Shown piece after piece: positions 449-49,146 of a DNA stretch of 64,000 bases. The stretch lies in NCBI GenBank assembly GCA_036630325.1, contig CP142727.1, positions 186,001 to 250,000 of the forward strand, read 5' to 3'. This DNA is from Vairimorpha necatrix. Taxonomy: Eukaryota. Numbering within the stretch: the stretch's first letter is position 1; each line of letters starts with the position of its first letter. The notes under the pieces are model-generated. The model did not search any database, was not told the origin of the DNA, and was given only the letters and a program-made list of their open reading frames with translations. The position numbers were made by a program, and so were the translations under genes.

Positions 449-551
449 TGTAGGAATATATGTCAATGTCAAATATATAATCGAGTTGATATATTTGACA
501 TCTGATCTTTTAAACAATTTTATAAAAATAAACCCATGTTTTGTTCCAACA
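449..551 (+). repeat. 5' LTR of Gypsy-1 (103 bp)
   Basis: Direct repeat of 4055-4163, which has one extra TGTCAA unit. Confidence 0.95.
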
Positions 552-3500
552 ATTTGGCGACAAGCGACAAAAATATTCTTCTCATCTTCAGAAATGAAGA
601 GAAAGACGACCCACAACAGTTCATAGAGGACTTGATGGAAGTGGGCAGGTTGAATGAGTACAGCGAGGGTAAGATGTTACTTACATTCAAGATGTCTCTT
701 AGGGAAGAAGCAAAAGATTGGATAATGGCCCAACCAGTAGGGCCAGACTTGGGTGAACTAATAGATAGATTCAGGGAGAGATTTGTCAGTAATATGATTC
801 TGAAGATTAGTTTGGAAAAGCTTGCAGCATTGAAGTATACAGGTGGATCTATTCTGAACTATCTCGACAGAATGGGTGCCATAGCGAGGAAAGGAAATGT
901 ACCAGAACAAGTCCTGGTAGCGTTTACATTGAATGGTCTGCCGAATAATCTAGCTAACATCGTGCTTATTAACAACAAAGAGGGCCTTACGTGGAAATAC
1001 ATCTATGATTCATTAAAGAATATTAAGGATACGAGAGAGACCGAGCGAAACCAGATAGCATTCTCATACTGTCAAGAAGTTAAGGTCGAAGCAATAAGAA
1101 ACAAAGTTAATAGTAAAAAATCAAGCTATTCAAAAATTAGATGTTTGATCTGTAGCGAGCAAGGACATGTGGTCTCTCAATGTCGTTTCAACAGTTTAAG
1201 GAAAAGCTCTAAGGTGAAAAAACAAGTTAGAGAGGTTAGTATACCACAAGGGAATGATGAGATAGATGTGGAAGAAGAGGACTTGAATAAATTTATTTTT
1301 AATTATAGGTTATTAAATAGCAGAAGTAATCGATCCACTGTTAAGTTGGCTACACTTGAGAACAATAAACGACCGTTTAAGGTATTATTAGATACAGGTG
1401 CAGAAGTTAATTTGATTAGGCCGGAACACCTTGAAGACAAAACGAGATTGACTAGAGATAATCTTCAATTACGGGCGGCCAACGGGTCACAGATAAGAAT
1501 CATAGGGAAAACGATGCTGAAAATAAAAATAGAAGGATACATATTTGAAGACGAATTTATTGTAACACGGGACATCACCATGCCGTGCATAGTAGGATGG
1601 ACATTATTGGACAAATATGAAGTTGACCTAAGATTTGGAAATGGAAAGGTCAACATGGAGTCGGGACAAATCCTTAAAGGAAATGCAATTGGATATCATA
1701 GGATTAACACGGGAGATAGTGAGCCAGTCATGGCTCAGCTATATAAATTAGGCGGAACGAAAGAAAAAGAGGCATCTAAAATAATAAAAGAATACCTTGA
1801 GCTGGGGGTGATACGGCCAAGTGAGAGTGCTTGGCGAAGTCCAGTGATTGTAGTACCAAAAAAAGATGGAGGATATAGATTGTGTATAGATTACAGGCGG
1901 CTTAATGATATTACGATTAAGGATGCATACCCCATGCCTAGAGTGGATGAGTTTATTGATGCACTAGAGGGTGCAAGTTATTTTACTAAGATGGATGCAG
2001 AATCGGGATATCACCAGATCAATATGGCTCCAAAGGATATTGAGAAGACTGCCTTTGCATGCAGAGAAGGACTTTTTGAATTTGTAAAGATGCCTTTCGG
2101 TCTAGTAAACGGGCCAGCCACATTTCAGAGAGCAATGAATAACATACTGAGAGAGTTTTTATACAAATTTGTGGTTGTTTATATGGATGATATCTTGGTC
2201 TATAGTAGAACGTTCGAGGAACATCAAGCGCATGTTAGGCTGGTTATGGAGAAGTTGGTAAATGCTGGAGTAAAGCTGAATGAGAAAAAGTGTGAATTTA
2301 ATAAGAAAGAACTGAAAATCTTGGGGCATGTGATCTCGAAGGAAGGAGTTAGGATCGACACAGAAAGGATAAAGAGTATTGAGGAATTGCCGATTCCAAA
2401 AAACAAAAAGAAATTGCAATCATTGTTGGGGCTATATAATTACTGTTCGAAATTTATAAAAGACAGTCATAAGATAGTAAGCCCATTGTATAGGATCATT
2501 AAGTTGAAAAAGGAAGAGGAAATCAAATTTTGGAAAAGGGCATCAGAAAACAGGCAGTTTATCGAAGCCATAGAAGCGTTAAAGGCAGCTGTGAATAAAG
2601 CGACATTATTGACTATCCCAAATACGAGAGATAAATTCATTTTGACGACGGACGCGTCAAATGAAGGAAGTGGAGCCATGCTATCCCAGGTAATAGAAGG
2701 AGAGGAAAAAATGGTAGCATACTTTAGTTCTTTGCACACGAAAGCGGAAAAAAATTATTCTACAACAGAACAGGAGCTGTTGGCGGTAGTCAAAGCATTT
2801 CAACACTTCAGAGAATATCTACTGTTGGGAAAGTTTACCTTAAGAACGGACCATCAGGCTTTAAAGTATCTTTTTAAGTCAAGGAATATTAAGGCAAGGT
2901 TAGCGAGATGGTCGCTCCTCCTTCAGGAATATGATTTTGAAATTGAGTATATTGCGGGGCCCTCAAACTATGTAGACCATTTAAGTAGAGACTTCAAAAT
3001 TGAGATGAAGAAAATTGAAACGGTAAGCACTGCTGAAGAAAGGAAAGTTATAAACAGGGAAAGGGGACTAGAACTGGTCAGATTTTACCACGATATGTTG
3101 GGCCATGGCTCAAAGAAAAATATGAAATATAACATGAGACGTAAATATGAATGGAAGGAAATTAACAAAGATATAGATCAGTTTGTAGAGAACTGCGAAA
3201 TCTGCCAACAGGAAAGAGAACAAAAACAATTCAAAGATATTGTACCATTGGTGGCAAACAACATTGGTGAGATTTGGGAAATTGATATAGTAGGACCATT
3301 CAAGGAGAGTGAGGACGGGTACAGGTATCTACTGACAATGGTAGATCATTTCTCAAAAACGGGGGAGATTATCCCGATCCATACAAAAGACATGAACACA
3401 ATAGTGTATTTAGTGGACAGATACATCATAAAGAAATACGGAATTCCGAAGGCAATTTTAACAGATAATGGACGAGAGTTTAAAAATCGAATCTGTGAGG

Positions 3501-4054
3501 ATTATGCAAAAGAGAAACAGTTTACTTGGAAATACGGATCACCATACAGTCCGACCACCACAGGATTAATAGAGAGATTTAACAGAACAATAGGAATTAA
3601 ACTGAGGAAGATCACGGAATTTGGCAAGTTCGATTGGGCCAAATGTGCAAAAAAAGTAAATAAAGCCTATATGCAGTCCTATCACCGTGCCATAGGCTGT
3701 GCGCCCATAGAATTGCACCAAGGATTAGTTCTTAATCATATGGATCTGCAGGAGGGAATTAATATTAGAATGGATAGAACAGACTTTAGGACTAGAGCGA
3801 AGGAGAATTTAGAACGATACAGAGGGGAGTATGCAACACATGAGAAAACGGGTGCGCCCCAATTGGAAGAAATAAAGGTAGGTGACAGGGTATGGTACAG
3901 ACTAATTTTGCCCCAAGGAGGGAAACTGGAACCAAAATGGCAAGATAAAGGAACGGTCTTGGATAAAAGCTTTAAATCGTATAGTGTTTTACTTGACGAC
4001 GGAAGAACGATTACAGCGAATCGAAATCATGTAAAACTTTTAAAGGGGAAGTAG
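536..4054 (+). CDS. Gag-Pol polyprotein (Gypsy order PR-RT-RH-IN), 1172 aa
   Basis: CCHC knuckle CLICSEQGHVVSQC, protease LLDTGA, RT YMDD, RNase H TTDAS, integrase HHCC and DDE region (TDNG...IERFNRT); ATG preceded by AAACCC. Confidence 0.96.
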   Translation: MFCSNNLATSDKNILLIFRNEEKDDPQQFIEDLMEVGRLNEYSEGKMLLTFKMSLREEAKDWIMAQPVGPDLGELIDRFRERFVSNMILKISLEKLAALKYTGGSILNYLDRMGAIARKGNVPEQVLVAFTLNGLPNNLANIVLINNKEGLTWKYIYDSLKNIKDTRETERNQIAFSYCQEVKVEAIRNKVNSKKSSYSKIRCLICSEQGHVVSQCRFNSLRKSSKVKKQVREVSIPQGNDEIDVEEEDLNKFIFNYRLLNSRSNRSTVKLATLENNKRPFKVLLDTGAEVNLIRPEHLEDKTRLTRDNLQLRAANGSQIRIIGKTMLKIKIEGYIFEDEFIVTRDITMPCIVGWTLLDKYEVDLRFGNGKVNMESGQILKGNAIGYHRINTGDSEPVMAQLYKLGGTKEKEASKIIKEYLELGVIRPSESAWRSPVIVVPKKDGGYRLCIDYRRLNDITIKDAYPMPRVDEFIDALEGASYFTKMDAESGYHQINMAPKDIEKTAFACREGLFEFVKMPFGLVNGPATFQRAMNNILREFLYKFVVVYMDDILVYSRTFEEHQAHVRLVMEKLVNAGVKLNEKKCEFNKKELKILGHVISKEGVRIDTERIKSIEELPIPKNKKKLQSLLGLYNYCSKFIKDSHKIVSPLYRIIKLKKEEEIKFWKRASENRQFIEAIEALKAAVNKATLLTIPNTRDKFILTTDASNEGSGAMLSQVIEGEEKMVAYFSSLHTKAEKNYSTTEQELLAVVKAFQHFREYLLLGKFTLRTDHQALKYLFKSRNIKARLARWSLLLQEYDFEIEYIAGPSNYVDHLSRDFKIEMKKIETVSTAEERKVINRERGLELVRFYHDMLGHGSKKNMKYNMRRKYEWKEINKDIDQFVENCEICQQEREQKQFKDIVPLVANNIGEIWEIDIVGPFKESEDGYRYLLTMVDHFSKTGEIIPIHTKDMNTIVYLVDRYIIKKYGIPKAILTDNGREFKNRICEDYAKEKQFTWKYGSPYSPTTTGLIERFNRTIGIKLRKITEFGKFDWAKCAKKVNKAYMQSYHRAIGCAPIELHQGLVLNHMDLQEGINIRMDRTDFRTRAKENLERYRGEYATHEKTGAPQLEEIKVGDRVWYRLILPQGGKLEPKWQDKGTVLDKSFKSYSVLLDDGRTITANRNHVKLLKGK

Positions 4055-4163
4055 TGTAGGAATATATGTCAATGTCAATGTCAAATATATAATCGAGTTG
4101 ATATATTTGACATCTGATCTTTTAAACAATTTTATAAAAATAAACCCATGTTTTGTTCCAACA
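4055..4163 (+). repeat. 3' LTR of Gypsy-1 (109 bp)
   Basis: Starts immediately after the pol stop codon; followed by TSD CCTTG. Confidence 0.95.
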
Positions 4164-26846: not shown

Positions 26847-28054
26847 ATACCCTTCAATACAGTTAGAAAAATCAAAATAAATAATCCGGCTAAATATTAA
26901 GACATTTTACGCTTTGTCTTTGTCAAGTGACAGATCTCCAGTGGTCCTAAGATTGCCCTGGAGCTCAGAGAATACGATTCTATAAGTATTCTCTTCCTTC
27001 TCCCAACTATGTTTATGGAGGGAAAATGTATAATATTTTCCCGCCTAAAAATATAAAAGAAAATCATATCCGAAGGGTATGAAGAATAATAAAAACATTA
27101 GTTTAAAACATTTATCTCGTACTGATGGGAAACCATCAGTCCACAGTCTTCTTTTAAAATATGCCTTGCAAAGATTTCTACTTTGTGCAATGAGATTTTT
27201 GACTTTTTCCCATCTATTAAATTCGTCAAGAACATTATAGAATTTGTCAAACGTTATGCGGAATTATTAATATTTTCCTCTCATTCATATAGTGTAAAAA
27301 GTTTTAGATAGCATGTTTTGAAAGTATAACACGTCAAATATCATCCAATTATTTATTAAACGACATCAGACATTTGACATTTGGATTGTAAAGTGAGTAT
27401 ATAAATATTAATATAATTTATTTGGGTATAATATTCGGCTGTTTAATTACTTTTCACAAGATACGCTTACAGACTCATCTGGCAGTTCCAGGACTTCCTT
27501 CTGAGATTCACTCATTGGGCTCTCGAAGACCCCTTCCTGATCTGTATCAAGCCCATGTCTGGCTGACATAGTTGGGCTTTCTAAAGTCATTTTAAGGACT
27601 CTTGAGTGTTAATATGCTTCCGTTCTGGGTTCTAATCTGAGCACTTTGATATGCGTACGGTGAAAATTAGTTACTATTCCATCCCATGTCATCACATGAG
27701 GAATAATTTTCGGCTTGTATTTGTAGAGAGAAGCCACATGATTTGCGAGCAAGACGTATTTATGTTTCTTTTCTGTTTCTACTGCATGGAGGTTGTTAAA
27801 GCTTGTGATTCCAACTTCTACAACGATCACTTCTTTCCTCAACTTGTCTACAATTAGTATATCGGGCTTGTTATACTTTATTTTAATACTTGAATGTATC
27901 CTACTGTCGACTCGTATCTCAACATACTTATTAGCTACACATTCCTGGACTGAATGATTTCTAATTCTTTTGGCATGGGATAGGCCATACGTCTTACACA
28001 ACTGCAGGTGGATGCATCGCAGTGCCTCATTGTGCCGTCTCATGTAATCATGTG

Positions 28055-31000
28055 TGTTGAATATTTATAAATTTGTATTTTTATTACCCCTAAGATATCT
28101 TAAAATAAACATGGTGGAGAATATGAACGAAAAAATAACTAAAAACAACATAATACATGAAATAAAAAGAGCAGAGGCTCTTAGTAAATGGAATATAAAA
28201 AAGGACGAAGATAAAATGGATGAATTTATAAGTAGATTTGATGAAAATATCTTAAACTGGCATTTAGAAGAATTTGCTAATAAAAGAAAAGCAAGTTATA
28301 ATTATGAAGATTGGAAAAACAAAGCATTAGAGAAATTTAGTACAAAAATTTCTATTGTAGACCTTTGCTCTAAGAAACAAAGGGATAATGAATCAGTTTC
28401 TGTATTTATAAAGGAAACGATAAAATTATGCGAAGATTTAAAAATTGAAGAAAAGGATAGAAGGAAAATTCTAAAAAACGGCATTAAACCCAGATATAAA
28501 CTTATAAAAATATTTTTATCCAGTAAATATGACACTGACGATGAATTTTATGAAACCATTGAAGAAATGGAGAAGGAGGCCGATTTATCATTCTCCTTCA
28601 AAAATTTAAGCATAAAAGAAACTCCGAGAAAAACTTTAACCTGCTTCATTTGTAAAAAGCCAGGACACGTTTCTACAAGTTGCTATTTTCGGAATAGAAA
28701 TAGAGATACTGGTTCAAGTAAGCAAGTACATGAGGTAGTATCTGATAATGAAGAGAGATTAGAAGAAAGCACTTCATTTTATGAAAATAAAAACAATTAC
28801 GTCTACGTTAATTTTAAGAAAGTACCTGTGGTTTTTGATTCTGGTTCTAGTTTCAATTTTATTTCTTATTGTGCAGTTAGAGAATTGAAATTACAGGTGT
28901 CGAGGAGGATAAAGCAATTGAGCTTTTTTACGTGTTTAGATGAAGAATTTAAAGTACGAGATATAGTAGAGCTTGAATTTAATTATATGGACAAAATATA
29001 TAAAACCGAACTTTTTATTTTACCAAAGGTTGATAAATTTAAAATTTTATTAGGAAAACAGGAGTTAATCAAAATTTTTGCAAAGCCAAAAAACAGAGTG
29101 TGTCAAATTAAAACAAAACCTGGAGAAAAAGTCGTAGAAAGAGTGTATGGATTGCCACAGAAATTAGAAGTAGCCATAGACGCCGAGATAGAAAAGTTGT
29201 TAATGAAAAAATATATTCAAAAATCAAGATCTACGTGGTTAAACAATCTTAGACCAGTTATGAAACCAGATGGATCGGTTCGAGTAACAACAAATTTGAT
29301 TGCACTTAATAAGTTAGTAGATTTGGATAAATATTCGCTTCCAAGTATAGAAAGAATTTTACATAATCTAAAAGATCAAAAATATTTTTCAAAGTTAGAT
29401 TTAAAAGATGGATTTTTTCAAATAGAATTAGCAGAAGAAGACAGGCACAAGACAGCTTTTACACATAAACATCATTTGTACGAATGGAATGTAATGCCAA
29501 TGGGCTTTAAAAATTCGCCGGTCATATTTCAACGGTTTATGGATGATGTTTTACAAGAGGATATTGGTAAAAGATGTTTCATTTATGTTGACGATATTTT
29601 GGTCTTTGGAACAACTGAAGAAATTCATGATAAAAATTTTCGGATTATAACAGAACGATTAAAAAATAATGATTTGCGATTAAATGAAGATAAAACTATC
29701 TACAAAAAGACATCAGTAGAATTTTTAGGACACATAATAGAATATAACAAAATAAAACCAAAAATAGAAGCTAGCCAAGGTATTGATGAAATTAAACCGC
29801 CCCAAAATATAAAATCTTTACAAGAATTTCTTGGCTTTATAAATTTTTATAGAAAATTTATTCCCATGTGCTCAAGTGTTGCAGGATGCTTGTATGATTT
29901 ACTCAAAAAAGATAAAAATTTTTGTTGGGGAGAACTGGAAGATAAAGCTTTTAATGAGCTTAAAACTATTATAAAATCAAATATAGCATTATATCAACCA
30001 GACTATACAAAACCATTTATACTAGAAACAGATGCGTGTAATTCGGGTGTTGGGGCAATTCTCTCACAGAGACAAGGTGAAACGATTTATCCAATTTCAT
30101 ATGCTTCAAGAAGACTTTTACCTGCTGAGATAAACTATAGTATCAGTGAAAAGGAATGCTTAGCAGTATTATGGGGAATGGAGAATTTTAAATATTTCTT
30201 GTACGGGAATGAATTTGAAGTAATAACAGACCATAAAGCCTTAGAAGTTCTGAATAAAGGAGAAATAGGCTCTCAAAGAATACAGAGATGGCTAGATAGA
30301 CTTAGTCAGTATAATTTCACAGTAAAATACAGAAGGGGAGCAGAAATGGCACATGTAGACTATATATCTCGCTTATACCAAAAGGATGCCCAAGTTGTTA
30401 ATGAAATTCAAGATTTAAATGATGACACAAAAAGGAAACTTATTAAAGATAAACACGAAAAATTAGTTCATCGTGGAGCAAAAATAGTAGCCAAAGAGCT
30501 TAAAAGGGAATATACTTGGGATAATATGGAGAAATTAGTTGAAGAAGAGTTAAAAAAGTGTATAAGATGTAAAATGTATAATCCAAAAAGAGGAAAAGCC
30601 TTTTTGTTCGTTAAATCGTTTTATACAGGAGAAAAGGTAGCTATAGACATTATAGGACCAATAAATAAACAATATATAATAACAGGAATTGATTACTTTA
30701 GTAGAAAGGGGTTTGGAAAAGTTATTACCACTAGAGATAGTCAGAAAATTGTAGATTTTATAAACGAAATTAACAAACAAATATTAATTAAAGAGTTGAT
30801 AATGGATTCATCAAAAGAAAACCAAAGTAGCAAAGTAAAGAACTGGGCTATAGAGAATAAAGTAAAAGTACATTACACAACGCCCTTTCACCATCAATCA
30901 AATGGGCGTGTAGAAAGATTTAATAGAACTGTGCAGGAAGGGATTTACAAACAAGAGGGAAATCTAAATCTAAAATCAAAACTATTAAAAATGTTAGAGG

Positions 31001-31398
31001 CTTACAATAATATCTGCCACTCGAAACTAGGAATGTCACCAAACGAAGCTTGTAAAAAAGAAAACGAGACAAAAATAAAAGAAAAACAATACGAAGAAAT
31101 TATTATCTTTAACAAAGCAAACGAGAATAAAGAAGCCGAAGAAGTGTTTAATGAAAACGATCAGGTGATAATAAAGAACGAATTTGCTGTAGCTAAAGGA
31201 CAACCCAAGTTTAAAGATAGAGGACAGATTATAGAACGATTAGAAAATAATTCGTATATAGTATTATCGAAAGGAAGAAGGCTTAAAAGACATGCGTCTC
31301 AACTCAAAGTACTTGTATATTAGCTTATAAAAGAGGAGGGATGTTGAATATTTATAAATTTGTATTTTTATTACCCCTAAGATATCTTAAAATAAACA
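28055..31398 (+). mobile_element. Ty3/Gypsy LTR retrotransposon (Gypsy-2), intact, 3344 bp
   Basis: Identical 57-bp LTRs at 28055-28111 and 31342-31398; TSD ATGTG at 28050-28054 and 31399-31403; PBS TGGTGGAGA at 28112; PPT AAAAGAGGAGGGA at 31329-31341. Confidence 0.97.
28111..31323 (+). CDS. Gag-Pol polyprotein, 1070 aa from the first ATG
   Basis: CFICKKPGHVSTSC knuckle, FDSGS protease, YVDD RT, ETDAC RNase H, HHCC and DDE integrase (SNGRVERFNRT). Confidence 0.95.
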   Translation: MVENMNEKITKNNIIHEIKRAEALSKWNIKKDEDKMDEFISRFDENILNWHLEEFANKRKASYNYEDWKNKALEKFSTKISIVDLCSKKQRDNESVSVFIKETIKLCEDLKIEEKDRRKILKNGIKPRYKLIKIFLSSKYDTDDEFYETIEEMEKEADLSFSFKNLSIKETPRKTLTCFICKKPGHVSTSCYFRNRNRDTGSSKQVHEVVSDNEERLEESTSFYENKNNYVYVNFKKVPVVFDSGSSFNFISYCAVRELKLQVSRRIKQLSFFTCLDEEFKVRDIVELEFNYMDKIYKTELFILPKVDKFKILLGKQELIKIFAKPKNRVCQIKTKPGEKVVERVYGLPQKLEVAIDAEIEKLLMKKYIQKSRSTWLNNLRPVMKPDGSVRVTTNLIALNKLVDLDKYSLPSIERILHNLKDQKYFSKLDLKDGFFQIELAEEDRHKTAFTHKHHLYEWNVMPMGFKNSPVIFQRFMDDVLQEDIGKRCFIYVDDILVFGTTEEIHDKNFRIITERLKNNDLRLNEDKTIYKKTSVEFLGHIIEYNKIKPKIEASQGIDEIKPPQNIKSLQEFLGFINFYRKFIPMCSSVAGCLYDLLKKDKNFCWGELEDKAFNELKTIIKSNIALYQPDYTKPFILETDACNSGVGAILSQRQGETIYPISYASRRLLPAEINYSISEKECLAVLWGMENFKYFLYGNEFEVITDHKALEVLNKGEIGSQRIQRWLDRLSQYNFTVKYRRGAEMAHVDYISRLYQKDAQVVNEIQDLNDDTKRKLIKDKHEKLVHRGAKIVAKELKREYTWDNMEKLVEEELKKCIRCKMYNPKRGKAFLFVKSFYTGEKVAIDIIGPINKQYIITGIDYFSRKGFGKVITTRDSQKIVDFINEINKQILIKELIMDSSKENQSSKVKNWAIENKVKVHYTTPFHHQSNGRVERFNRTVQEGIYKQEGNLNLKSKLLKMLEAYNNICHSKLGMSPNEACKKENETKIKEKQYEEIIIFNKANENKEAEEVFNENDQVIIKNEFAVAKGQPKFKDRGQIIERLENNSYIVLSKGRRLKRHASQLKVLVY

Positions 31399-33139
31399 AT
31401 GTGAAAGCATACGATCACACTGGGTGGCCATATGATCTACTGTCTTTGCATATTCATGGCAGTGTGGGCATTTTATCTGTTTCTCTAAGAAAATACTTCG
31501 GTCCTGTAATGCACATAAATTTCCTTCCTCTCTCGGGCTTATATTTCCTTTTGTGAGCCACGTGGCAGCCTGTTTTATATCAATAAGTGGATCGTCTCTT
31601 GGTCTAAATAGCTTTGAATGGTTTGTTTTTATTTTTATATCGCTATAAAGAGATTCGGGTTGAGCCTCTATTAATATTTTAGCTGTTACGTTTTCCTTAA
31701 GTTTATATTTCTCTTTTATATATCCTTCTATGGTGGATAGATATGTGTAGCCAGTTTTCTCGGAGTGGAAAATCGCTTTGCGTTTTAGAACAGATTCTTT
31801 CGTGCTTTAAAATTCTTTGGCTAGTTGTAAAAGCATTCTTTCACTTTTATGTTCTACGCGTTGGAGCTCTCTTCCAAGTTCGGCTCTGGAGAGATATGAG
31901 TATATAAATAAACTTATGTTTTCTAAAAAAATTTTTTAAATACAACAAAATGTTTATCAAAAAAAAAAATAATCCAAAATTATCTTAAGTAAAATTCGCG
32001 TTTACGCCATTAACTTGGACCGAACGTAACTGATATTACTTTTGTTTTTTATTGTAATTTTTGAGTCTAATTTACAAGTCACTTGATTTATAATACTTAT
32101 TCCATATTTGTCTTCATTAAATACATTAGTTTATTGTTCAACAAACATTTATCTTGTGTTTCTTACGATAAATTCAGCCTTTTAGCTATAAAACTTCTTG
32201 GCAGCAATTTCAAGTATTGATGTAACTTTAAACTCCAAAACCAACCAAACAGATTACTAACTCAAAATAACTAAAAAAGATGTGCGTTTACAAATATAAA
32301 TAACTCCAACATCAGTAACTAAAATATAAGTGATAAGAATTATGACAAATTCAAAAACAAATAAAAAAGGAACTTCTAGTCCCTCTTGAAGGAATAAAAA
32401 ATCAAAGAAGTATTAAAAATATAAAAATTCATGTTTTTTAGCTGCACCAAGTAACAAAGCAGGGACTCTGCCATATTGTATTTTATGTTTGTCTAATGTT
32501 TCTTTCCAGATAGATATTTTTACAGCATTTTGCTAATTATTTTCCATATTTTCGTTGCATTATGTTTGTCAGTAGATCTTAAACATATGTATTTGCATGT
32601 TTAAGAAATCATTAATAAGTCAAAATAGTTTTAAACTCCAATTTATTGCTCCACATTTCCATTTTGTCATATTTTTTATAGCGAATAAAGACACTTCTTA
32701 TTTTTATAATTTTTTTTGCATTTAGAGAAATTTTTATCAAGTAAATATTTTTTTATAGCATGTTTTACAAATTCAAATTCTAAACGCATTTATTGCCCGA
32801 AAAAAAAAACGTGACCAATGTCGAGCAAAAAATGTTTAACATGCGCTCAAAGAAGAAAATATATTTTTAATTACAATAAGTAGGCATATAATTACTATTA
32901 GCTCTACTATTCTAAACAAATAATTAATATTCCACTTACCTTTCACATGAACTCTGCAAAAAAAAATCTAGAAAATAATCCATCCACGCTTTGTATGGCA
33001 TTAGTTGACGATCGTGTTATTTCAAAAGAATTTTTGTTTGATTGTTATCTTGTCGCTAGATCTTTGAAATGTACATGTTTATTGATCAATAACTATTACT
33101 TAAAGCTTTTGAATTCAGTTTGTCGTTACATCATCTAAC

Positions 33140-34620
33140 ATTGCTGGGTTCGGTTCTGGGCGCCAAAAGGGTTCTACTTTCCATGAAGAAGTTTGAAGAA
33201 CTGATTGAATGAAAATGCCTAGGATAATCATTAATTTGATTCAATCTGTTAAGAATATATATTTAATAAATTTAACCCTTAACTTACAATTATCTTTAAC
33301 ATGGTGGATATTAAAATTATTGAACCCAAACAAAAAAACAAAAGAAGAGGTTGCAAGTTCCGTCGAGGCATAACATAAACAAAATGCAGTATAGGTTAGA
33401 ATGGGGATGTTGGGTTGTTTAACAGAAGAGAAGGTGATGATTTGCATCAGTCAAGGGACCTTGATAGGTGAAGGAGTAGAGTAGCTATGAAGAGCTATTG
33501 AAAAACAGTACTGACTGTTCTAAGATCTGAAATAAGAGATGTGCAGATTAAGTGTAGTGGTAATCTCACCATTCACATTAAAGCTATCGTGGCAAGATTG
33601 TTGCATCTTTAGTGTTCAAATTTTCAGAGAGGTTTAAAAGAGAAGAAAATCAAAAACAAACTGTGTTGTAGTCGATGAATGAGATAGATGGAAAAAATCC
33701 GATTTCATTGTTAGGAAGACATGTGTAGAAAAATCACATGCCCATAGACTTTATTATGTATTATAACAGGGAAAGAAAGTACCGCGAAGACCAGTACTAG
33801 AAGGGATAGTAAGACGCGGTAGAATAAAGCGCAGCCCATGGTCAGTTAACATAAAAATGCACTTTTATTTTGAGAGCCAAGTAATTTGCGTATAGAGTAG
33901 TAAAGATAATTACATCACCCAATACTAAATTTAGCGCGGGGATGTTGAGAATATATATATAATAAAATTAACCCTTAACTTACAATTATCTTTAACACAA
34001 TCAAACATGTGCGCATCCAGAATAATGGATTTTTGGATCTAGTGTAGAAACGCATTACAAAGCAGAACAAAATAACGTTTGTAGTGAATAACGATACATA
34101 GAGTATTTGCCGGGCACAACCTAGTTTGATCTTGGCCGATGCATTCTGGGTGGGAAGAGATCCCAAAATTAATCAGGATACCAACGAAGTGATACAATAG
34201 AAATCTATGGGCCTTCTATGGGATTCTGTAACACAATGGCCGAAGACGATGGGAGTACAGTGACCAACACAATAAAAACGCGAGATATGTGAGATGGCGG
34301 TGTAAAATGCCCACTTTGAGATGTAGATAATTGTAGTAATCTTTGAGATAGTACGACGATGCATCTCCTCGGATTATATAAAACAGGTCCTTAAAGTAGA
34401 TCGATATAAAGCCACTCTGGATGCGATTTGAGGTATAGATGGGAAAATATTCTAACAGAGCCAAAGTCCAATGGCTACGATGAAGCTTGTTGCACGTGAT
34501 GGTTGTACTAAGAGATTAATGGAGAAAGAATATCTCAATACCAACTGGAATAGAATCACTCAAATCTTTTTGGTCCCTATGTAATGTTTAATGTTTCCCG
34601 ACCCCTATTTGCAAAGAACC
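33140..34620 (+). mobile_element. unidentified decayed dispersed repeat, homologous to 59485-60250 (-), hosting a TRIM insertion
   Basis: Colinear shared blocks, e.g. GGGCGC.AAAA.G.TTCTACTTTC, ATCTAGTGTAGAA.CGC, CTTGTTGCAC, ending TTTTGCAAAG. Confidence 0.6.
33247..33997 (+). mobile_element. non-autonomous TRIM-like LTR element, copy A (751 bp)
   Basis: 55-bp LTRs at 33247-33301 and 33943-33997 (3 differences); TSD CAATC at 33242-33246 and 33998-34002; PBS TGGTGGA; AGCGCGGGGA before the 3' LTR; no long ORF. Confidence 0.93.
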
Positions 34621-36265
34621 GGCTTACCATTTATAGTGTTATAGTTTACTAAAACAACTACCTTGTTAAAAAATCTTTTGTCTTATACCTATATCCGAAG
34701 AGTCTATATTTTGTGTCTTATAAAAGATCTATCCTGTTCTCCAGCAACTTGATGAATTAATGATTTTTACATAGATGTAATTAAAATTTATGTTTAATCT
34801 ACATTTATCTTAAATATTCTGGTCAATGTAGATTTTAATGAGTATTCATAAGTAATTAAAATTATTTTGAAAGTTCATGAGTTTTTTTAAAATGCTCAAC
34901 ATATGCATAAAGCTATTAATTTATTAAATGCATATGGTACTATATTCTTATTTATACAAATAAGTTATTTATTTTCAACCACATTCCCAAAATACAAATT
35001 TTTTTAATGTTTTTTTTTGATATAGCAGTCTTATTTTATTCTTGTTGTAAAAAATATATAAAAATTTTTTAAGCAATCAAATCTGTTGCAATTTAATTAA
35101 ATTTTAGTAATGCTGCATGTTTTTTTTTACGTCCAAGCTTGCTCGTATTTTATTTAATTTTCTTACATTTGCCTCTACCTATTTGATTTGTATTTGCACT
35201 TTTACTCAATTTGTTAAGTATACAACATTTTTGACGAACTATGAGGATTTTAAACTTATTTAGGTATGTTTTTTATTAATAGATTTATCTTATTTGCTTT
35301 CGCTTTTAGAATAGTCACTATATTTTTTTTTTTGCTAAGAAAAGACCTCATGTATTTTATATTTATAATATTTAATTAACCGTATTTAGAATAATTCTTA
35401 GCATTTACTTATGAATAATTATCCTTAAAGGTATGCTTTGCCTTTTTAGGTATCTTCTGTTCTTTGAGACAACAACATACGATTTTGGCATGTTATGATA
35501 GTGTTATATTTTAAGTTTGCTGTATTTTTAATAAACCAAATATATTTGCTCTACCTAAACAATTACTAGTCTTGGACCTACTTGCAAAAAATAGCTAAAT
35601 TGAAAGTCATAAACTAAAATAAAAACTTTTTATATGCAGAGTGATCTAATATTGGTATTGATCCCATTGTTTTTAATCAAAGACACCAAATATACATATT
35701 AGATGAATTAATTAAATCAAAAAAAGACATTGGGTAATATTTAATAAAAGGTATTAATTAAAAATTAGTTTATATAATGACTATTTATGTGATATTTATC
35801 AGCATGTCACTTTGTTTGTTTATAATATCTATAAGGCATTAATAAAATTAATTTGTTGATACTTGTAAGTGGTATAAATGACATATTTTTATAAAAACTA
35901 TCATATAAGTCAAGCCTTGAAACAACATTTGCATATTAGTATATATTTTACATTTAAAACATAATCTTATTGCAGTCGGCGCAAGTGAACAAAAACACAA
36001 TACTCGAGTATGTAGATTAAGATATTAATCGTTTATTTTAAATAAGTTAATTGAATTTTTGATCATACAATACATCTATTATAATATTCTAAATATTTCG
36101 ATGGAATATATAAGAAGAAAAGATTCGACTCCTAATAGCCGATTAAGAGAAGATCTTGAGCAAAAAATTTTCAAAGTCGGCTTCTTCTCTGATATCAAAT
36201 GTAATCATATTAATAACTCTTAAATTCTAAAAATATTACAATAAATATAATTGAAGCAAAAAAAT

Positions 36266-37114
36266 TTATTTTTTTTGTATTAATTCATCAATATAGCTCA
36301 GAATTTCTTTTACTTGGACAATTAAGTCTTTATTGACATCTAACGCTTCATAAAAATTTATATCTTCATAAAATTCATAATGATTGATGTATAGTTTTTG
36401 AAAATCATTAATCGCCATAGTTAAATATTTTCCTTTCTCGTGTATTTCTAAGGAACTTTTTTTTGAATAAACCGAAAAACGTATAAGTACTTTTATAATA
36501 AAATCAAAGAATTCAGGAGTGTATCCTTCATCTGTATTAAATAGATTTGCAATATCTCCATATTTGATTTTATAAAAATTAAAATTTTTTAAATTGTTTG
36601 CTATTTCTATTATAACATCCTTTTCCAAAGAAAACTTAGATAACTCATTCCATTGTAATTCTATTAAATCCAAAAACTTATTTATGTCTAAATTTTTCTG
36701 CGCATTGTTTTTATTCTTTTCATTTTTTGAAATATTTTCATTATTGCTTAAATATAGCAAATATTTATTTTTTATATCTAATTTAGTGACTAATTGTCTA
36801 AAAAATTTTATTTTGTCGTAAATATAATTTTCCCTTTCAAGAGTAAAAGAGTTTTTCTTACATGTTTCTGGAATGTCTCCAAATAAATAAATTTTCAGAA
36901 ATATTAGATAACATATTCTTGTAAAATGAAAGCTTTCGGGGTTGTACTCTAATATTTCGATTAATGCATCATTATTTGATGCGTCTGTTTTGTTCTCTTC
37001 GTCCATTTGTATATTAATGCAGTCAACTAAATCTTCAATAGTAATAATATTACTTTCATTTTCATCGGTTAAATATAACTTGGAGATATTAATAATAGAA
37101 TTTATCAACCGCAT
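36266..37114 (-). CDS. hypothetical protein, paralog of 39034-39876
   Basis: 282 aa; shares IFLKIYLFGD.PETCKK, FNTDEGYT.EFFDFII, KDLIVQV.EILSYID; CCCC upstream. Confidence 0.85.
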   Translation of the reverse strand: MRLINSIINISKLYLTDENESNIITIEDLVDCINIQMDEENKTDASNNDALIEILEYNPESFHFTRICYLIFLKIYLFGDIPETCKKNSFTLERENYIYDKIKFFRQLVTKLDIKNKYLLYLSNNENISKNEKNKNNAQKNLDINKFLDLIELQWNELSKFSLEKDVIIEIANNLKNFNFYKIKYGDIANLFNTDEGYTPEFFDFIIKVLIRFSVYSKKSSLEIHEKGKYLTMAINDFQKLYINHYEFYEDINFYEALDVNKDLIVQVKEILSYIDELIQKK

Positions 37115-38624
37115 TGAGGGGTGTAAGAAAACAAAATTTATTTAAAGAAAGTTTTTTAGATTGCAAAATTTTTAGCGTTGGTATAAATAAACATTATTTA
37201 TCACAATTTTAGAGAACTCAAGATCTAAATAATGTTTGCAACACCAACTACTAAATTTTTTTTAATAAAAGAAAAACGGGTTCTTAAATATTTGCTGTAG
37301 AAATTATTTTTTAAAAAGTAAATTTTAGTATAGCAAAGCTTAAAAATGCGATTATGAAAGCATTTCTCCAAAATGTAAAGCGCGTGTCAAACGTCAATAT
37401 TTAAGCTGAATTGAAATTTTTGACATATTGAGATATGATGACAAATTAAATATTATGCAAAAACGATTTAAATTTATAAATTATAAACAATATTGGCAAG
37501 TATTGTGAAAATCATATGATGTTTCTACCAAAATGCGTAGATTTATAAATTTGTATGAGTGTTGTGAAGTTGATCCCAAAACAAAACACATTTCTACTTT
37601 ATAGAAAATGTCTCCTTAGCTTTGGCATACGGTCAAAAAAGGGTTGGCTTGTGTTTTGATGCCAACGTTTATAGCTTTTGTTGAAATTTAGAATTAAATT
37701 TTTTGGATATTGAGACAACAAAGAACATTATGCAATTTCAAAAAACTTCATCTAGATAAATACGATCAAAAAACTAAAATTATTGTTTATTTAATATATG
37801 GATATTTTTTGAACTATGATGAGGCTCTATATGTAAATTTTTATTTAATTGAAGATATGCTAGTTTAAAGCCTTTGGTAATAGATATCGTTAATTTCAAA
37901 CAACAACAAAAAATATGCCAATTTCATATATCAATTTGTAATAGTTAATTTCTAAAATAAATACAATATATAACCCCGCGTTAGATTATGTAATTATTGT
38001 TTTTTTGTACGTTTCTTTAAAAAAATTAATTTGCATTAAAATCAATATTTTTTATCTTTTTTTAATTATTATATAATATTGATATACAGCCGAGAACTAT
38101 TTTACAATTGTAGCATTACAATACATATATCTGTAATATTATATTATAATTCATTTTAAATGTTGAAAACATATTAATAAATTTACACAAGTTTTATTTA
38201 CAAATAGTAGTGTTTTTTAATAGAATTATTTGCATCTTAATTTATAATCTTAATACTATTTTAAATTGTTCAAAAATTTTTATTGATTTAATAATATAAT
38301 GAAAAATTTATTCTGGATTATCGTTTCTTAAACTTTTAGCAAAAAATGTATAAGGGAATTTATTTTAACTTCCAGTGAAAATGATGGAAGTTTTTTATTT
38401 TAGATGGCAGAAATTGGAGAAAGTTTTTTTTAAAAAAGCTCCATTTTTCGATTTTCAAAAGAAGGAAAAAGCATTAAAAAATAATAATAAAACTTAGTAA
38501 AATTATATACAAATAAAAAAAATTTGAAGGACTAATCTTTTTTGGGGATATATATTCATGCCTGCAAATTTTCTTACGAGGCTTGTTAAAGATAATTGTA
38601 AGTTTTATAAGCAAATTTAATTAG

Positions 38625-38910
38625 GGTATGCTTAGTGTAGTTTATACTTCTGATTTAACAAGGATAGGTTCCGCGTTAGCGTCTCCTGCTTTTAGATAGC
38701 TTCAGATCCATGGTTCTTTCCATTTCGGTATTATCTTCTCTCCTTCGGTGGTCCACAGAAATGCATTCTAGTGTCTTCTTTAGTGTGATCATCTAGATGT
38801 ACGCTCCTACCATCTTTGGGTTTTGACTCGTGTGGTATAAGATTTTTGAAACCAGTTATTATACCGTCCCAAGTGATATTACAGGGAATTATCTTTGTTT
38901 TAAACCATAT
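38625..38910 (-). mobile_element. REL non-LTR retrotransposon 3' relic
   Basis: Translates to KTKIIPCNITWDGIITGF, like the KIIPHVMTWDGIV of the other copies; boundaries approximate. Confidence 0.65.
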
Positions 38911-39033
38911 ATTAAGTTAGATGCATATTAAACTTGTAATAATAGCTTTTTTTCTGATTAAGAGTTCTTATTATTTTTAAAACTTATTATGCTTTTAAAA
39001 CAAAAAAAAAATTTACAGATAGTTTATTTTTTA

Positions 39034-39876
39034 TTAATCTATTAAATCATCAATATAACTCAGAATTTCGCGTACTTGAACAATCAAGTCCTTATGAACT
39101 TTTAAAGCTACAAAGAAATCTGTTTTTTCTATAAATTCATAGTGACTTAAGTATAATTTTTGAAAATTATTTACTGCCATATTATAATATACTTTTTCCT
39201 CGCTCTTTCTTAATAAATTCTTTTTAGAATATATCGATAAACGTATAAGTACTCTTATGATAAAATCAAAGAATTCAATGGTGTACCCTTCGTCCGTATT
39301 GAACAATTTTTTAATTTCTTCACGTTTTATTTTATAAAAATCTAAAGTTTTTAATCTGTTTGCAATTTCCTTTATTGTATCTTCATCCAAAGAAAATTTT
39401 AATAACTCATTTGATTTATATTCTGATAAATTTAAAAACTTATTTATATTCGAATTTTTCTGTTTATTATCTTCAATCTTTTCTTTTTTTAAGATATTTT
39501 CATTTTTTTCGATGTATTCTAAATATTTGTTTTTTATTTCGAATTTGTCAACAAAATATTTAAAAATTTTTATTTTTTCAAAAATAAAATTTTCTTCTTC
39601 TAGAGTATAAACAGTTTTCTTACAAGTTTCAGGCATGTCTCCAAATAAGTATATTTTAAGGAATATAATATATTTTATCCTTTCAAAATGAAAATTTGCA
39701 TTTTTATACTCTAATGTCCCTACTAATATATCAATATTTCTTATATTGTTTTTGTCTGCGTTATCCACTTCTAAATTAGTGTAATCCGGGGTATTGTTGA
39801 TGCTTGATATTTGGTTTTCGCTTCTATCGTTCAAAGATAATTTAGAGATACTAATAAAGGAACTGACTAATCGCAT
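39034..39876 (-). CDS. hypothetical protein, paralog of 36266-37114
   Basis: 280 aa, colinear similarity over the full length; GCCC before ATG. Confidence 0.85.
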   Translation of the reverse strand: MRLVSSFISISKLSLNDRSENQISSINNTPDYTNLEVDNADKNNIRNIDILVGTLEYKNANFHFERIKYIIFLKIYLFGDMPETCKKTVYTLEEENFIFEKIKIFKYFVDKFEIKNKYLEYIEKNENILKKEKIEDNKQKNSNINKFLNLSEYKSNELLKFSLDEDTIKEIANRLKTLDFYKIKREEIKKLFNTDEGYTIEFFDFIIRVLIRLSIYSKKNLLRKSEEKVYYNMAVNNFQKLYLSHYEFIEKTDFFVALKVHKDLIVQVREILSYIDDLID

Positions 39877-47325: not shown

Positions 47326-49146
47326 ATGTTTTTTTTGTTAATATATTTAGCAACAATCAGATGTTCTGATTATATTTGGTTTATTCCAAATGACGATACA
47401 AAAATTACAGCATATGTATCTTTGAGAAGTATAGATAAAAATATAAAGTCTTCATTACTGACTCATAGGCTGGGGTTTTTCATTAGTGCCAAAAAAATTT
47501 CTAACTATTGCTTTTATACAAACTTTTTCGAATATGGATCACTGTGCTATTTTGAACCGGTAAATGATGATGTATATCACAAAATTCCAAAAATGCTAGA
47601 ATCGGTTCACTTTAAATACAATAAAGATTTGGAAAATGCTATATCATTTTATAATAATAGATTTATGTTAAAAACTACAATCACTCTAAAAAAAGATAAG
47701 GAGTCTTGGTTTGAACTATTATTTTTAAGTCGAAACAAAAGTAATATTAAATTTAAAAGAAGTAACCATTATATATCTAAAAATCGATTTTCTATACAAG
47801 AAATAAAATGGGGATCTTACGAATGTAAACACAAGCCTGAAGGAATTAAATGTTGCGATGAATTATATAAAAGAAGTAAATTTAAACATGCAGATTTTTA
47901 TGTCGCAGAAGAATTAAAAACTTTAAAATTTAGGTCAACGGAAGAATCTGTACGTGAAAAACTGAGACTAAATGATATCCGAAACAAAAGGTTCAAATTT
48001 TTTTCGAACAACGATAATGCAACTGAAACAACAGATATTATAGTAGAAGACATAAAAAACCAAGAGGAGCAAGGCAAACTAAATGCACAAATAATAAAAA
48101 ATTACATTCCCAACGGCAAACAAAGCGTTGATAATTGCAATTTTTTAACTAATATGGAGGAAGATTTGCATAATAAGACTCTAGATAAAGTTTCAGACTT
48201 ACATCTCAACAAGGACAATTTTTTTAATCTTAATTGTTGAGAATATAGATTTAATAAATTTAACCCTTAACTTACAATTATCTTTAACATGGTGGAGAAT
48301 AAAATTATGGAACCCAACAAAAAAAAGAAGAGGTCGTAAGTTCCGTCGAAGCATGAGACGTAAAAAAATGCAGTCTAGGTTAGAATGGGGATGGTTGGTT
48401 GTCTAACAGAAGAGAAGGTGATGGCTTGCATTAGTCGAGGGACCCGTATAGGTGAAGACGTAAAGTAGCTATAAAGAGCTATGGAGAAACAGTATTGACT
48501 GTAATAAGATCTGGCATAAGAGTTGTCGAGATTGAGTGTAGTGGTAATCCCACTATTACATTAAAGCTATCGTGGCAAGATAGTTGAACCAATGGTGTTC
48601 AAAAATCCAGAGAGATTTAAAAAGAGAAGAAAATCAAAAAGAAACTGTGTTATAGTCGAAGGATGAGATAGACGGAAAAAATTCGATTTCATTGTTGGGA
48701 AGACATGTGTAAAGAATAATCACATGCCCATAGACTACATGTATTAAAACAGGGAAAGAAAGTACCTCGAAGACCAATACTAGAAGGGATTGTAAGACGC
48801 GGTAGAGTAAAGCGCAGCCCATGGTCAGTTAACATAAAAATGCACTTTCTTTTGAGAGCCCAGTAGTAGGCGTAGGAAGTAGTAAAGATAATTTCATCGC
48901 CCAATTCTGAATTTAGCGCGGGGATGTTGAGAATATAGATTTAATAAATTTAACCCTTAACTTACAATTATCTTTAACATTAATAAAGACATTAGTAATG
49001 AGAATAAAAAAGAAGACCCCGACAAAGAACAGAAAAAATCGAATCCTACGCCGCCTAACCCGGACAAAAATAGAATCTTCGCTTTCTTAGTTTTGTTTAT
49101 GATTTTGGCAGTTATAACGTTAATTTTATATCTAGCTTCTAAGTAA
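47326..49146 (+). CDS. surface-protein family member 1, interrupted by a TRIM (304-aa truncated product ends at 48240; orphaned stalk/TM tail at 48985-49146)
   Basis: Signal peptide and family domain; removing 48235-48984 restores the frame to ...FLVLFMILAVITLILYLASK*. Confidence 0.88.
48235..48979 (+). mobile_element. non-autonomous TRIM-like LTR element, copy B (745 bp)
   Basis: Identical 55-bp LTRs at 48235-48289 and 48925-48979; TSD TTAAT at 48230-48234 and 48980-48984; PBS TGGTGGAGAAT. Confidence 0.95.

Follow-up and report, generated by a model that had tools for sequence, protein, structure and literature searches.

How short can the long terminal repeats (LTRs) of a retrotransposon be, and where does its translation begin when nothing separates the LTR from the coding sequence? 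The question is raised by a locus in 64,000 nt of Vairimorpha necatrix (GenBank assembly GCA_036630325.1, contig CP142727.1, positions 186,001 to 250,000), the whole of which is called the window below; positions are those of the window, on the plus strand unless the minus strand is named. At 28055-31398 direct reading finds a complete Ty3/Gypsy element of 3344 bp, here element A. An earlier note had described it as a minimal Gypsy element with 57-bp LTRs, whose start codon is made of the last LTR base and the first two bases of the primer-binding site (PBS). On the whole, we give a probability of roughly 80% to the reading that element A is an autonomous, probably still mobile Ty3/Gypsy (Metaviridae) element of a Nosema/Vairimorpha-type microsporidian, in a clade built without a leader. 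As to its class, it is a microsporidian Ty3/Gypsy element with an unusual, conserved and extremely compact architecture.

Ends and coding content of element A

The 5' LTR occupies 28055-28111, has the termini TGTT and AACA, and is identical at 57 of 57 positions to the 3' LTR at 31342-31398. With up to three mismatches allowed, the sequence matches nowhere else in the window, and 100 shuffles gave an expectation of 0, which rules out a 57-bp repeat by chance. The LTRs are flanked by perfect copies of a 5-bp target site duplication (TSD), ATGTG, at 28050-28054 and 31399-31403. The borders are set by the empty site, found in contigs from public runs (sets X1 to X4), where 28049 is joined to 31399 with 3349 bases skipped and five letters fitting either side; the joint is present in three contigs each of X1 and X2, and in no contig of X3 or X4. 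The skipped bases equal the 3344-bp element plus one TSD copy, so the ends are fixed to the base and the LTRs cannot be longer, and the idea that longer LTRs merely appear short is ruled out as well. Element A has, then, the direct repeats with TG start and CA end, the TSD of 4-6 bp and the precisely delimited insertion that are expected of Metaviridae. Direct reading together with the repeat search bears out what had been claimed of the identical LTRs, the perfect TSD and the intact open reading frame (ORF). The claim of recent activity fares less evenly: the LTRs are indeed identical, but the identity of two 57-bp repeats has little dating power. Further insertion is indicated by an X2 contig that leaves the 3' LTR at the identical final ACA and enters another flank (loose end 31391), from which at least one more insertion follows. 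These contig sets cannot reveal RNA starts, ends or levels, and their uneven depth along element A carries no such information. In one high-depth X2 contig, 28625 is followed by one extra A and then again by 28116 (28116-28625); some copy could have a tandem duplication of 510 bp in gag, or the joint could be an assembly artefact.

Element A sits antisense in the 3' part of another repeat, found on the minus strand at 27609-28049 and 31404-31806, and the empty-site contigs are other, uninterrupted copies of this flanking repeat. The interrupted frame reads ...CPHCHEYAKTVDHMATQC... ahead of the insertion and ...KPDILIVDK...VVEVGI... beyond it, which we take to resemble the CCHC and restriction-like endonuclease end of long interspersed nuclear elements (LINEs) of R2/R4(Dong) type; a Pfam search with a 144-aa part of it gave no match.

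A single gag-pol frame of 1070 codons runs from 28111 to 31323 and closes with TAG (31321-31323), as the ORF list shows. The translation contains a Gag zinc knuckle, C-X2-C-X4-H-X4-C, at aa 178-191 (CFICKKPGHVSTSC; 28642-28683), where Pfam zf-CCHC gave no match in the protein at E<=0.01. It is followed by an aspartic protease (PR; aa 231-319, DSGS, 28801-29067; PF08284, E 1.2e-4), a reverse transcriptase (RT; aa 384-543, YVDD, 29260-29739; PF00078, E 2.1e-36), an RNase H (RH; aa 606-734, 29926-30312; PF17917 and PF17919) and an integrase (IN) with H2C2 zinc domain and catalytic core (aa 771-976, 30421-31038; PF17921, PF00665 and PF13683). The order of the Pfam domains along the 1070-aa protein is that of Gypsy elements and excludes membership in Pseudoviridae. 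The polypurine tract (PPT), AAAAGAGGAGGGA, lies at 31329-31341 and adjoins the 3' LTR; relatives carry ..GGGGGGGA or ..GCGCGGGGA in this position. At the border of the two, the last PPT A and the TG of the 3' LTR also make an ATG, which opens a 71-codon frame through the LTR into the flank (31341-31556); this is probably chance.

A probable start codon on the LTR/PBS junction

Immediately 3' of the 5' LTR stands TGGTGGAGA (28112-28120), part of the 10-nt PBS TGGTGGAGAA (28112-28121), and the related contig L033 and T2, a mini-element of the window described below, have these 10 nt after the LTR too. The last LTR base, A at 28111, together with TG of the PBS forms the first ATG of the open frame (28111-28113). 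Since this ATG overlaps the PBS, the frame that it opens takes in the latter, which would be translated as (M)VEN, and there is no room for a leader, as had been proposed and as direct reading confirms. The RNA around it is predicted to fold weakly (28091-28210, z -1.9, with 9 of 200 shuffles folding as well), and no structure was found over the PBS. The frame is also open upstream through the LTR; a coding meaning for this was rejected, because by an estimate from base composition 19 stop-free codons are expected about once in five times, and in L033 the frame is open for just seven codons ahead of the ATG.

A search with the polyprotein of element A scored 7996 candidates, and 189 proteins passed E<=0.001; the best 120 of these are listed (P0001 to P0120). 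Among the matches listed, the nearest are microsporidian, with two from V. necatrix (96% and 53% identity) and others from N. granulosis, Pseudoloma and Enteropsectra. The closest, P0001 (V. necatrix, 96%), is annotated at 789 aa without Gag, and many relatives are proteins of about 1070-1110 aa on contigs of 3.2-3.7 kb. N-termini were compared for the best 28 matches, P0001 to P0028, from which the N-terminally cut P0001, P0006, P0020 and P0028 were dropped, leaving 24. A junction of the form xxC-A/TG-Gxx must encode [N/H/Y/D]-M-[V/A/G]. This signature occurs within 25 residues of the N-terminus in 15 of the 24 relatives (P0002, P0004, P0005, P0007-P0012 and P0021-P0026); in the case of P0005, it is the L033 DNA that shows MVEN upstream of the annotated start. 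One further protein, P0027, is ambiguous (HMGW at 21-24). MVE itself is present in 11 of the 24 close relatives versus 1 of the 92 more distant matches P0029-P0120. Three classes of PBS are read in the same frame, TGGTGGAG as M-V-E, TGGCACCC as M-A-P and TGGCGACA as M-A-T. The last class appears as M-A-T in P0026, P0122 and P0124; in P0121 and in element B, a second Gypsy element of the window, a 3-nt spacer precedes it and the reading is N-N-L-A-T. The strongest single fact for the junction start comes from P0007, where M1 (MVEN...) is followed by no further Met until residue 313, past Gag, so that the junction AUG is the sole AUG able to make Gag there. In P0010 the Met following the junction Met is residue 408.

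The DNA of relatives gives a similar view, and LTRs of 53-68 bp are the rule among them, which answers positively the question whether such lengths recur. Element A itself reads AAACA / TGGTGGAGAAT across the junction and has no ATG inside its LTR. L033, with 41% amino acid identity to element A, has 58-bp LTRs (229-286 and 3535-3592), the junction AACA / TGGTGGAGAAC with its ATG in frame, no ATG inside the LTR, and a stop codon within the 3' LTR. The junction ACA / TGGCACCCGA, again with the ATG in frame, is shared by L005 (59 bp, a single LTR on a permuted contig), L001 (66 bp, an identical pair) and L038 (about 68 bp, 5' copy only, its start inferred from TGTTG). Overall, five of the seven autonomous elements seen as DNA have the junction ATG in the polyprotein frame, though these five cases share descent and are not five independent trials. 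The proposed conservation of the in-frame CA/TGG ATG is thus upheld by the DNA of L033, L005, L001 and L038, by the signature in the 24 proteins and by the three PBS classes. The other two autonomous elements are element B, with LTRs of 103/109 bp, which has a 3-nt spacer before its PBS and therefore no junction ATG, while the frame is kept and an LTR ATG stands directly after CCC; and L012, with LTRs of 53-54 bp and no ATG inside the LTR. L012 (958-5637) is a Gypsy element of 4.68 kb with an ordinary layout, whose main ATG at 1084 has its own CCC 17 nt before it; this leader CCC could be an internal promoter for a translation-only RNA. L001, an element of 3.95 kb, has between pol and the 3' LTR a further open frame, about 160 codons long (MDKKSDINL...; 3430-3917). 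A collection of viral contigs gave 139 pattern matches, with no relative of element A among them.

Putative host-type promoter motifs in the LTR

Within the 57 bp we recognise a TATA-like box, TATAAAT, at 28066-28072, 21 nt before CCCC, then a putative host-type promoter motif of T-run and CCCC, TTTTTATTACCCC, at 28078-28090, and finally AATAAA at 28104-28109, a candidate poly(A) signal in its 3' LTR copy (31391-31396). The earlier placing of CCCC 20 nt ahead of the junction ATG (28087-28090) and of AATAAA at the LTR end is correct. An alignment of six LTRs yields one invariant module, an AT-rich box followed by ACCC at 21-27 nt from the LTR end, with CCC in 6 of 6; a box of AAATAAA type directly precedes CCC in L033, L005, L001, T2 and element B. 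Host genes of the window share this arrangement: among 16 ORFs of at least 150 aa, 12 have CCC 0-7 nt before the ATG, on a background of 3.9 CCC per kb. Element B and L005 carry CCCATG in their LTRs exactly as host genes do, and in L001 and L038 the LTR ATG comes 3-6 nt after CCC. Element A and L033 have no ATG between CCC and the junction, so the junction ATG is their first.

This is in accordance with published motifs. In N. ceranae a cytosine triplet is reported mostly at -10 to -3, with a T-run before it and a TATA peak at -27 (PMC2685015); mapped starts in E. cuniculi are preceded by a CCC-like motif, with 5' untranslated regions (UTRs) shorter than 7 nt and an imprecisely used AAUAAA (PMC2803860); and in Nosema species TTTTTTTACCCC and ACCCTT motifs are tied to active transcription (PMC11592040). 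The LTR of element A thus appears to carry the core-promoter grammar of its host. The proposed adaptation to short-UTR transcription in microsporidia gains support from TTTTTATTACCCC in the LTR, from CCC at the host ORFs and from these Nosema motifs. A scan for sigma-70 promoters and terminators round the 5' LTR gave 0 promoter-like sites; its model is bacterial and inapplicable to a eukaryote.

The same motifs might be chance in AT-rich DNA, the 57-bp LTR having no promoter of its own and the element living on read-through transcription from its neighbours, as often happens in microsporidia. E. cuniculi is indeed reported to show transcription overrun and 3' processing that is imprecise ('blurred') (PMC2803860). 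We regard this as very improbable, however, since RNA begun outside the LTR has no terminal repeat for first-strand transfer and LTR regeneration, since CCC, rare as it is, is invariant in all six LTRs and keeps a constant distance to their ends, and since element A, antisense in a LINE copy, has no obvious promoter donor.

Weighing the position of the start

A number of observations weigh against the junction ATG as the start in a leaderless clade. The signature is absent in 8 of the 24 relatives, namely P0003 and the subgroup P0013-P0019, and conservation of MVE by itself reflects conservation of the PBS and not translation. An in-frame Met lies 3-22 codons upstream of the junction in 10 of the 15 signature relatives, so the usual start of the clade may be inside the LTR and the junction ATG a second or fallback start. 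For L005, L001 and L038 the DNA confirms a true upstream ATG inside the LTR (8, 5 and 6 codons ahead, respectively); the junction ATG need not be the start there, and its in-frame state could be inheritance rather than selection. In L012 the junction ATG opens a frame of only 7 codons, and a 72-nt leader follows. The distance of 20 nt between CCCC and the junction ATG of element A is greater than the 0-7 nt of host genes. A second in-frame ATG, M5 (28123-28125), follows four codons after M1 in element A, and the annotated start Met of P0003 (V. necatrix, 53% identity), a protein without MVE, aligns with it. To these points may be added that the transcription start site (TSS), the poly(A) site and the start codon of element A are predicted from its sequence, and the primer tRNA, plausible as it is, from the complement of the PBS.

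One consequence could be that element A is translated from M5, or from both AUGs by leaky scanning, the junction ATG being a by-product of CA/TGG and the PBS lying in a very short 5' UTR. The closeness of M5 to M1 and the alignment with P0003 speak for such a start, and a TSS within a few nt of 28111 could let the first AUG be skipped. M5 is not conserved, however, in P0002, P0007, P0009, L033 and P0021, and in P0007 a start beyond the junction would have to wait for residue 313. Moreover, with 5' UTRs of less than 7 nt in E. cuniculi, AUGs near the cap are read in this phylum, and the G at +4 of the junction ATG is the base most often reported in that position there (PMC2803860). We therefore consider translation from M5 quite unlikely. 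The view that translation does not begin at M5 or later is in this way strengthened by P0007, but for element A itself a start at M5 keeps a small probability.

Another account starts from the upstream Met of the relatives: the ancestral start of the clade would be an LTR ATG right after CCC, which element A has lost, so that it now depends on the in-frame ATG that comes next, or has poor expression, and the frame across the junction would reflect descent and not selection. The CCCATG of element B and L005, the ATG 3-6 nt past CCC in L001 and L038, the ten signature proteins with an upstream Met and the placing of CCC in host genes all favour it. On the other side, at least five lineages have no upstream Met (element A, L033, P0007, P0009 and P0021) and still keep intact frames of 1027-1088 codons, and for element A the LTRs are identical and there is a second insertion at another site. 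We see this as possible though somewhat doubtful, and it is compatible with the junction ATG as the working start of element A today.

How element A might work

The LTR of element A would be essentially a host-type core promoter, TATAAAT and then T-run and CCCC, between two integrase end-sites. Transcription would start just past CCCC, at about 28091-28100, giving a 5' UTR of 11-20 nt in which the junction AUG comes first. The repeated region (R) of the RNA, with any unique 5' region (U5), would then be at most about 21 nt in element A. As R measures 10, 11 and 21 nt in Sire, mouse mammary tumour virus (MMTV) and Rous sarcoma virus (RSV) (PMC3601003), such a length is acceptable. Cleavage directed by the sole AATAAA, at the LTR end, would fall beyond the element, about 15-20 nt downstream of the 3' LTR, so that the RNA may run into flanking DNA and U5 may be nil. 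Strong-stop DNA would pair with the internal R. In most relatives a AAATAAAT box just before CCC could double as AT-rich promoter box and poly(A) signal.

Minus-strand synthesis would be primed by a tRNA with an Ala-type 3' end, ..TTCTCCACCA. The complement of the PBS is an Ala-type acceptor end, and in the bacterial metagenome-assembled genome (MAG) that holds L033 the pattern ...TCTCCA is found in four tRNA-Ala and one transfer-messenger RNA, 5 of 5. That MAG has 76 tRNA matches in bacterial-looking clusters, and its pattern is a hint only; tRNA-Ala is plausible as primer. The primer end ...TTCTCCACCA would show the C72, C71, U70 pattern of alanine acceptors. ARAGORN found 0 tRNAs in the 64,000-nt window. 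The other two PBS classes would call for tRNAs ending ...TCGGGTGCCA and ...TGTCGCCA. An annealed tRNA would cover the AUG, from which we infer that translation and priming could exclude each other on a given RNA molecule.

Taken together, these steps would describe an LTR shrunk to a bare host-type promoter of 53-68 bp, with the Gag start moved onto the LTR/PBS junction, about 10 nt serving as both start codon and primer site, priming and translation mutually exclusive as a built-in switch between the roles of mRNA and genome, R of at most about 20 nt and U5 absent or nearly absent; no smaller working LTR architecture would then be known. We offer it tentatively, as a possible mechanism. That such short LTRs suffice for mobility is supported by T2, which has identical 55-bp LTRs, the same PBS and a perfect TSD, and is inserted in a host ORF.

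Relation to known elements

Parisot et al. 2014 (PMC4202319) describe Ty3/Gypsy groups specific to microsporidia that have a single polyprotein. Going by the main text of that paper, element A is the same as these groups in PR-RT-RH-IN order, in its one gag-pol frame and in its microsporidian nearest relatives. The words 'PBS' and 'tRNA' occur 0 times in that main text, and no LTR length was found there; the supplementary consensus sequences may list LTR lengths. Our literature search, incomplete in coverage, found no description of LTR length, PBS or start codon for microsporidian Gypsy elements, nor of LTRs this short. With the same coverage it found no start codon described on an LTR/PBS junction, and, by titles and the opening of abstracts, nothing relevant on TGGTGGAG in connection with tRNAs and retrotransposons. 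The Nbr elements of Nosema bombycis, reportedly described by Xu et al. in 2006, count among these microsporidian groups.

The earlier note held that Gypsy LTRs are usually long and followed by a non-coding leader. As to length this agrees with published sets, which average 174-695 bp, the shortest being Mag C with 174 bp (Benachenhou et al. 2013, PMC3601003). As to the leader it is too absolute, because a coding PBS without a leader has a precedent in Ty1 of S. cerevisiae, reported to have a 53-nt 5' UTR, its AUG in LTR-derived RNA and its PBS at nt 95-104 inside the GAG coding region, with cis signals for translation, packaging and priming overlapping the coding sequence (PMC5454406). Element A is like Ty1 in that its PBS is predicted to be translated; it works alike and is not a member. 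Unlike element A, Ty1 is of Copia type (Pseudoviridae), has two frames and a tRNAiMet primer, and its AUG is given as 41 nt before the PBS, with no overlap. The Ty1 LTR of about 330 bp is several times as long as that of element A, and the LTR of the Bombyx element mag measures 77 bp. With short-LTR Gypsy clades (Mag C, Mag A) and short-R retroviruses (MMTV, RSV), as they are described in PMC3601003, element A shares TG..CA, TATA box, AATAAA and a short predicted R; unlike the Mag C average of 174 bp in that source, the whole LTR of element A is 57 bp.

An LTR of at least 100 bp, with separate U3, R and U5, is a typical, not a strictly defining, Gypsy trait, and the 57 bp of element A fall short of that length. 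Usual LTR search settings (LTRharvest / LTR_FINDER) are reported to require at least 100 bp (PMC6265445). With LTRs under this minimum, complete elements in microsporidian genomes, and their non-autonomous relatives of 745 bp as well, will probably escape detection or be annotated wrongly. It also matters that integrase end-sites, promoter, 3'-end signal and strand-transfer homology would fit in 53-59 bp, apparently by way of the compact promoter grammar of the host. A start codon overlapping the primer site further gives a simple, testable model for dividing the RNA of a retroelement between translation and reverse transcription.

Other elements in the window

Element B, at 449-4163, is intact, with 27% protein identity to element A. 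Its LTRs measure 103 and 109 bp, the 3' copy having an extra ATGTCA, with CCTTG as TSD. The frame starts with an ATG within the 5' LTR, at 536, and the PBS-like TGGCGACAAGCG behind the spacer is translated. Its stop codon, TAG at 4052-4054, adjoins the 3' LTR, so element B has no non-coding internal sequence at all.

The mini-element T2, at 48235-48979, is a non-coding LTR element of 745 bp with the PBS TGGTGGAGAATA, the PPT ..GCGCGGGGA and the TSD TTAAT. It is inserted in the host ORF 47326-48240, whose remaining C-terminal part, with a hydrophobic tail, resumes in frame at 48985-49146; a copy inside a host reading frame means that the family is shaping genes in the parasite. The junction ATG of T2 opens a frame of 16 codons only, and Rfam gave 0 matches on the element. 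An older copy, T1, lies at 33247-33997 (751 bp, 87.6% identical to T2), with LTRs that differ at 4 of 55 positions, the TSD CAATC and a PBS mutated to TGGTGGATATT. Terminal-repeat retrotransposons in miniature (TRIMs) have been described in plants. T1 and T2 are TRIM-like in being under 1 kb, in having LTRs, PBS, PPT and TSD, and in containing no long frame, their three-frame translation being rich in stops; unlike plant TRIMs, they have 55-bp LTRs and a microsporidian host. Their LTR shows more likeness to the L033 LTR than to that of element A. On the minus strand at 38584-38660, a 77-nt stretch, TGTTAAAT...TTTAACA, has as its last 21 nt the LTR end of T2; it may be an old solo LTR, with flanks, ATCCT / AGCCT, that match at only 4 of 5 positions.

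Two neighbouring minus-strand ORFs, 36266-37114 and 39034-39876, gave no match in Pfam. They have a 300-nt stretch in common (36238-36537 and 39000-39299, 74% identity), which suggests a local gene duplication.

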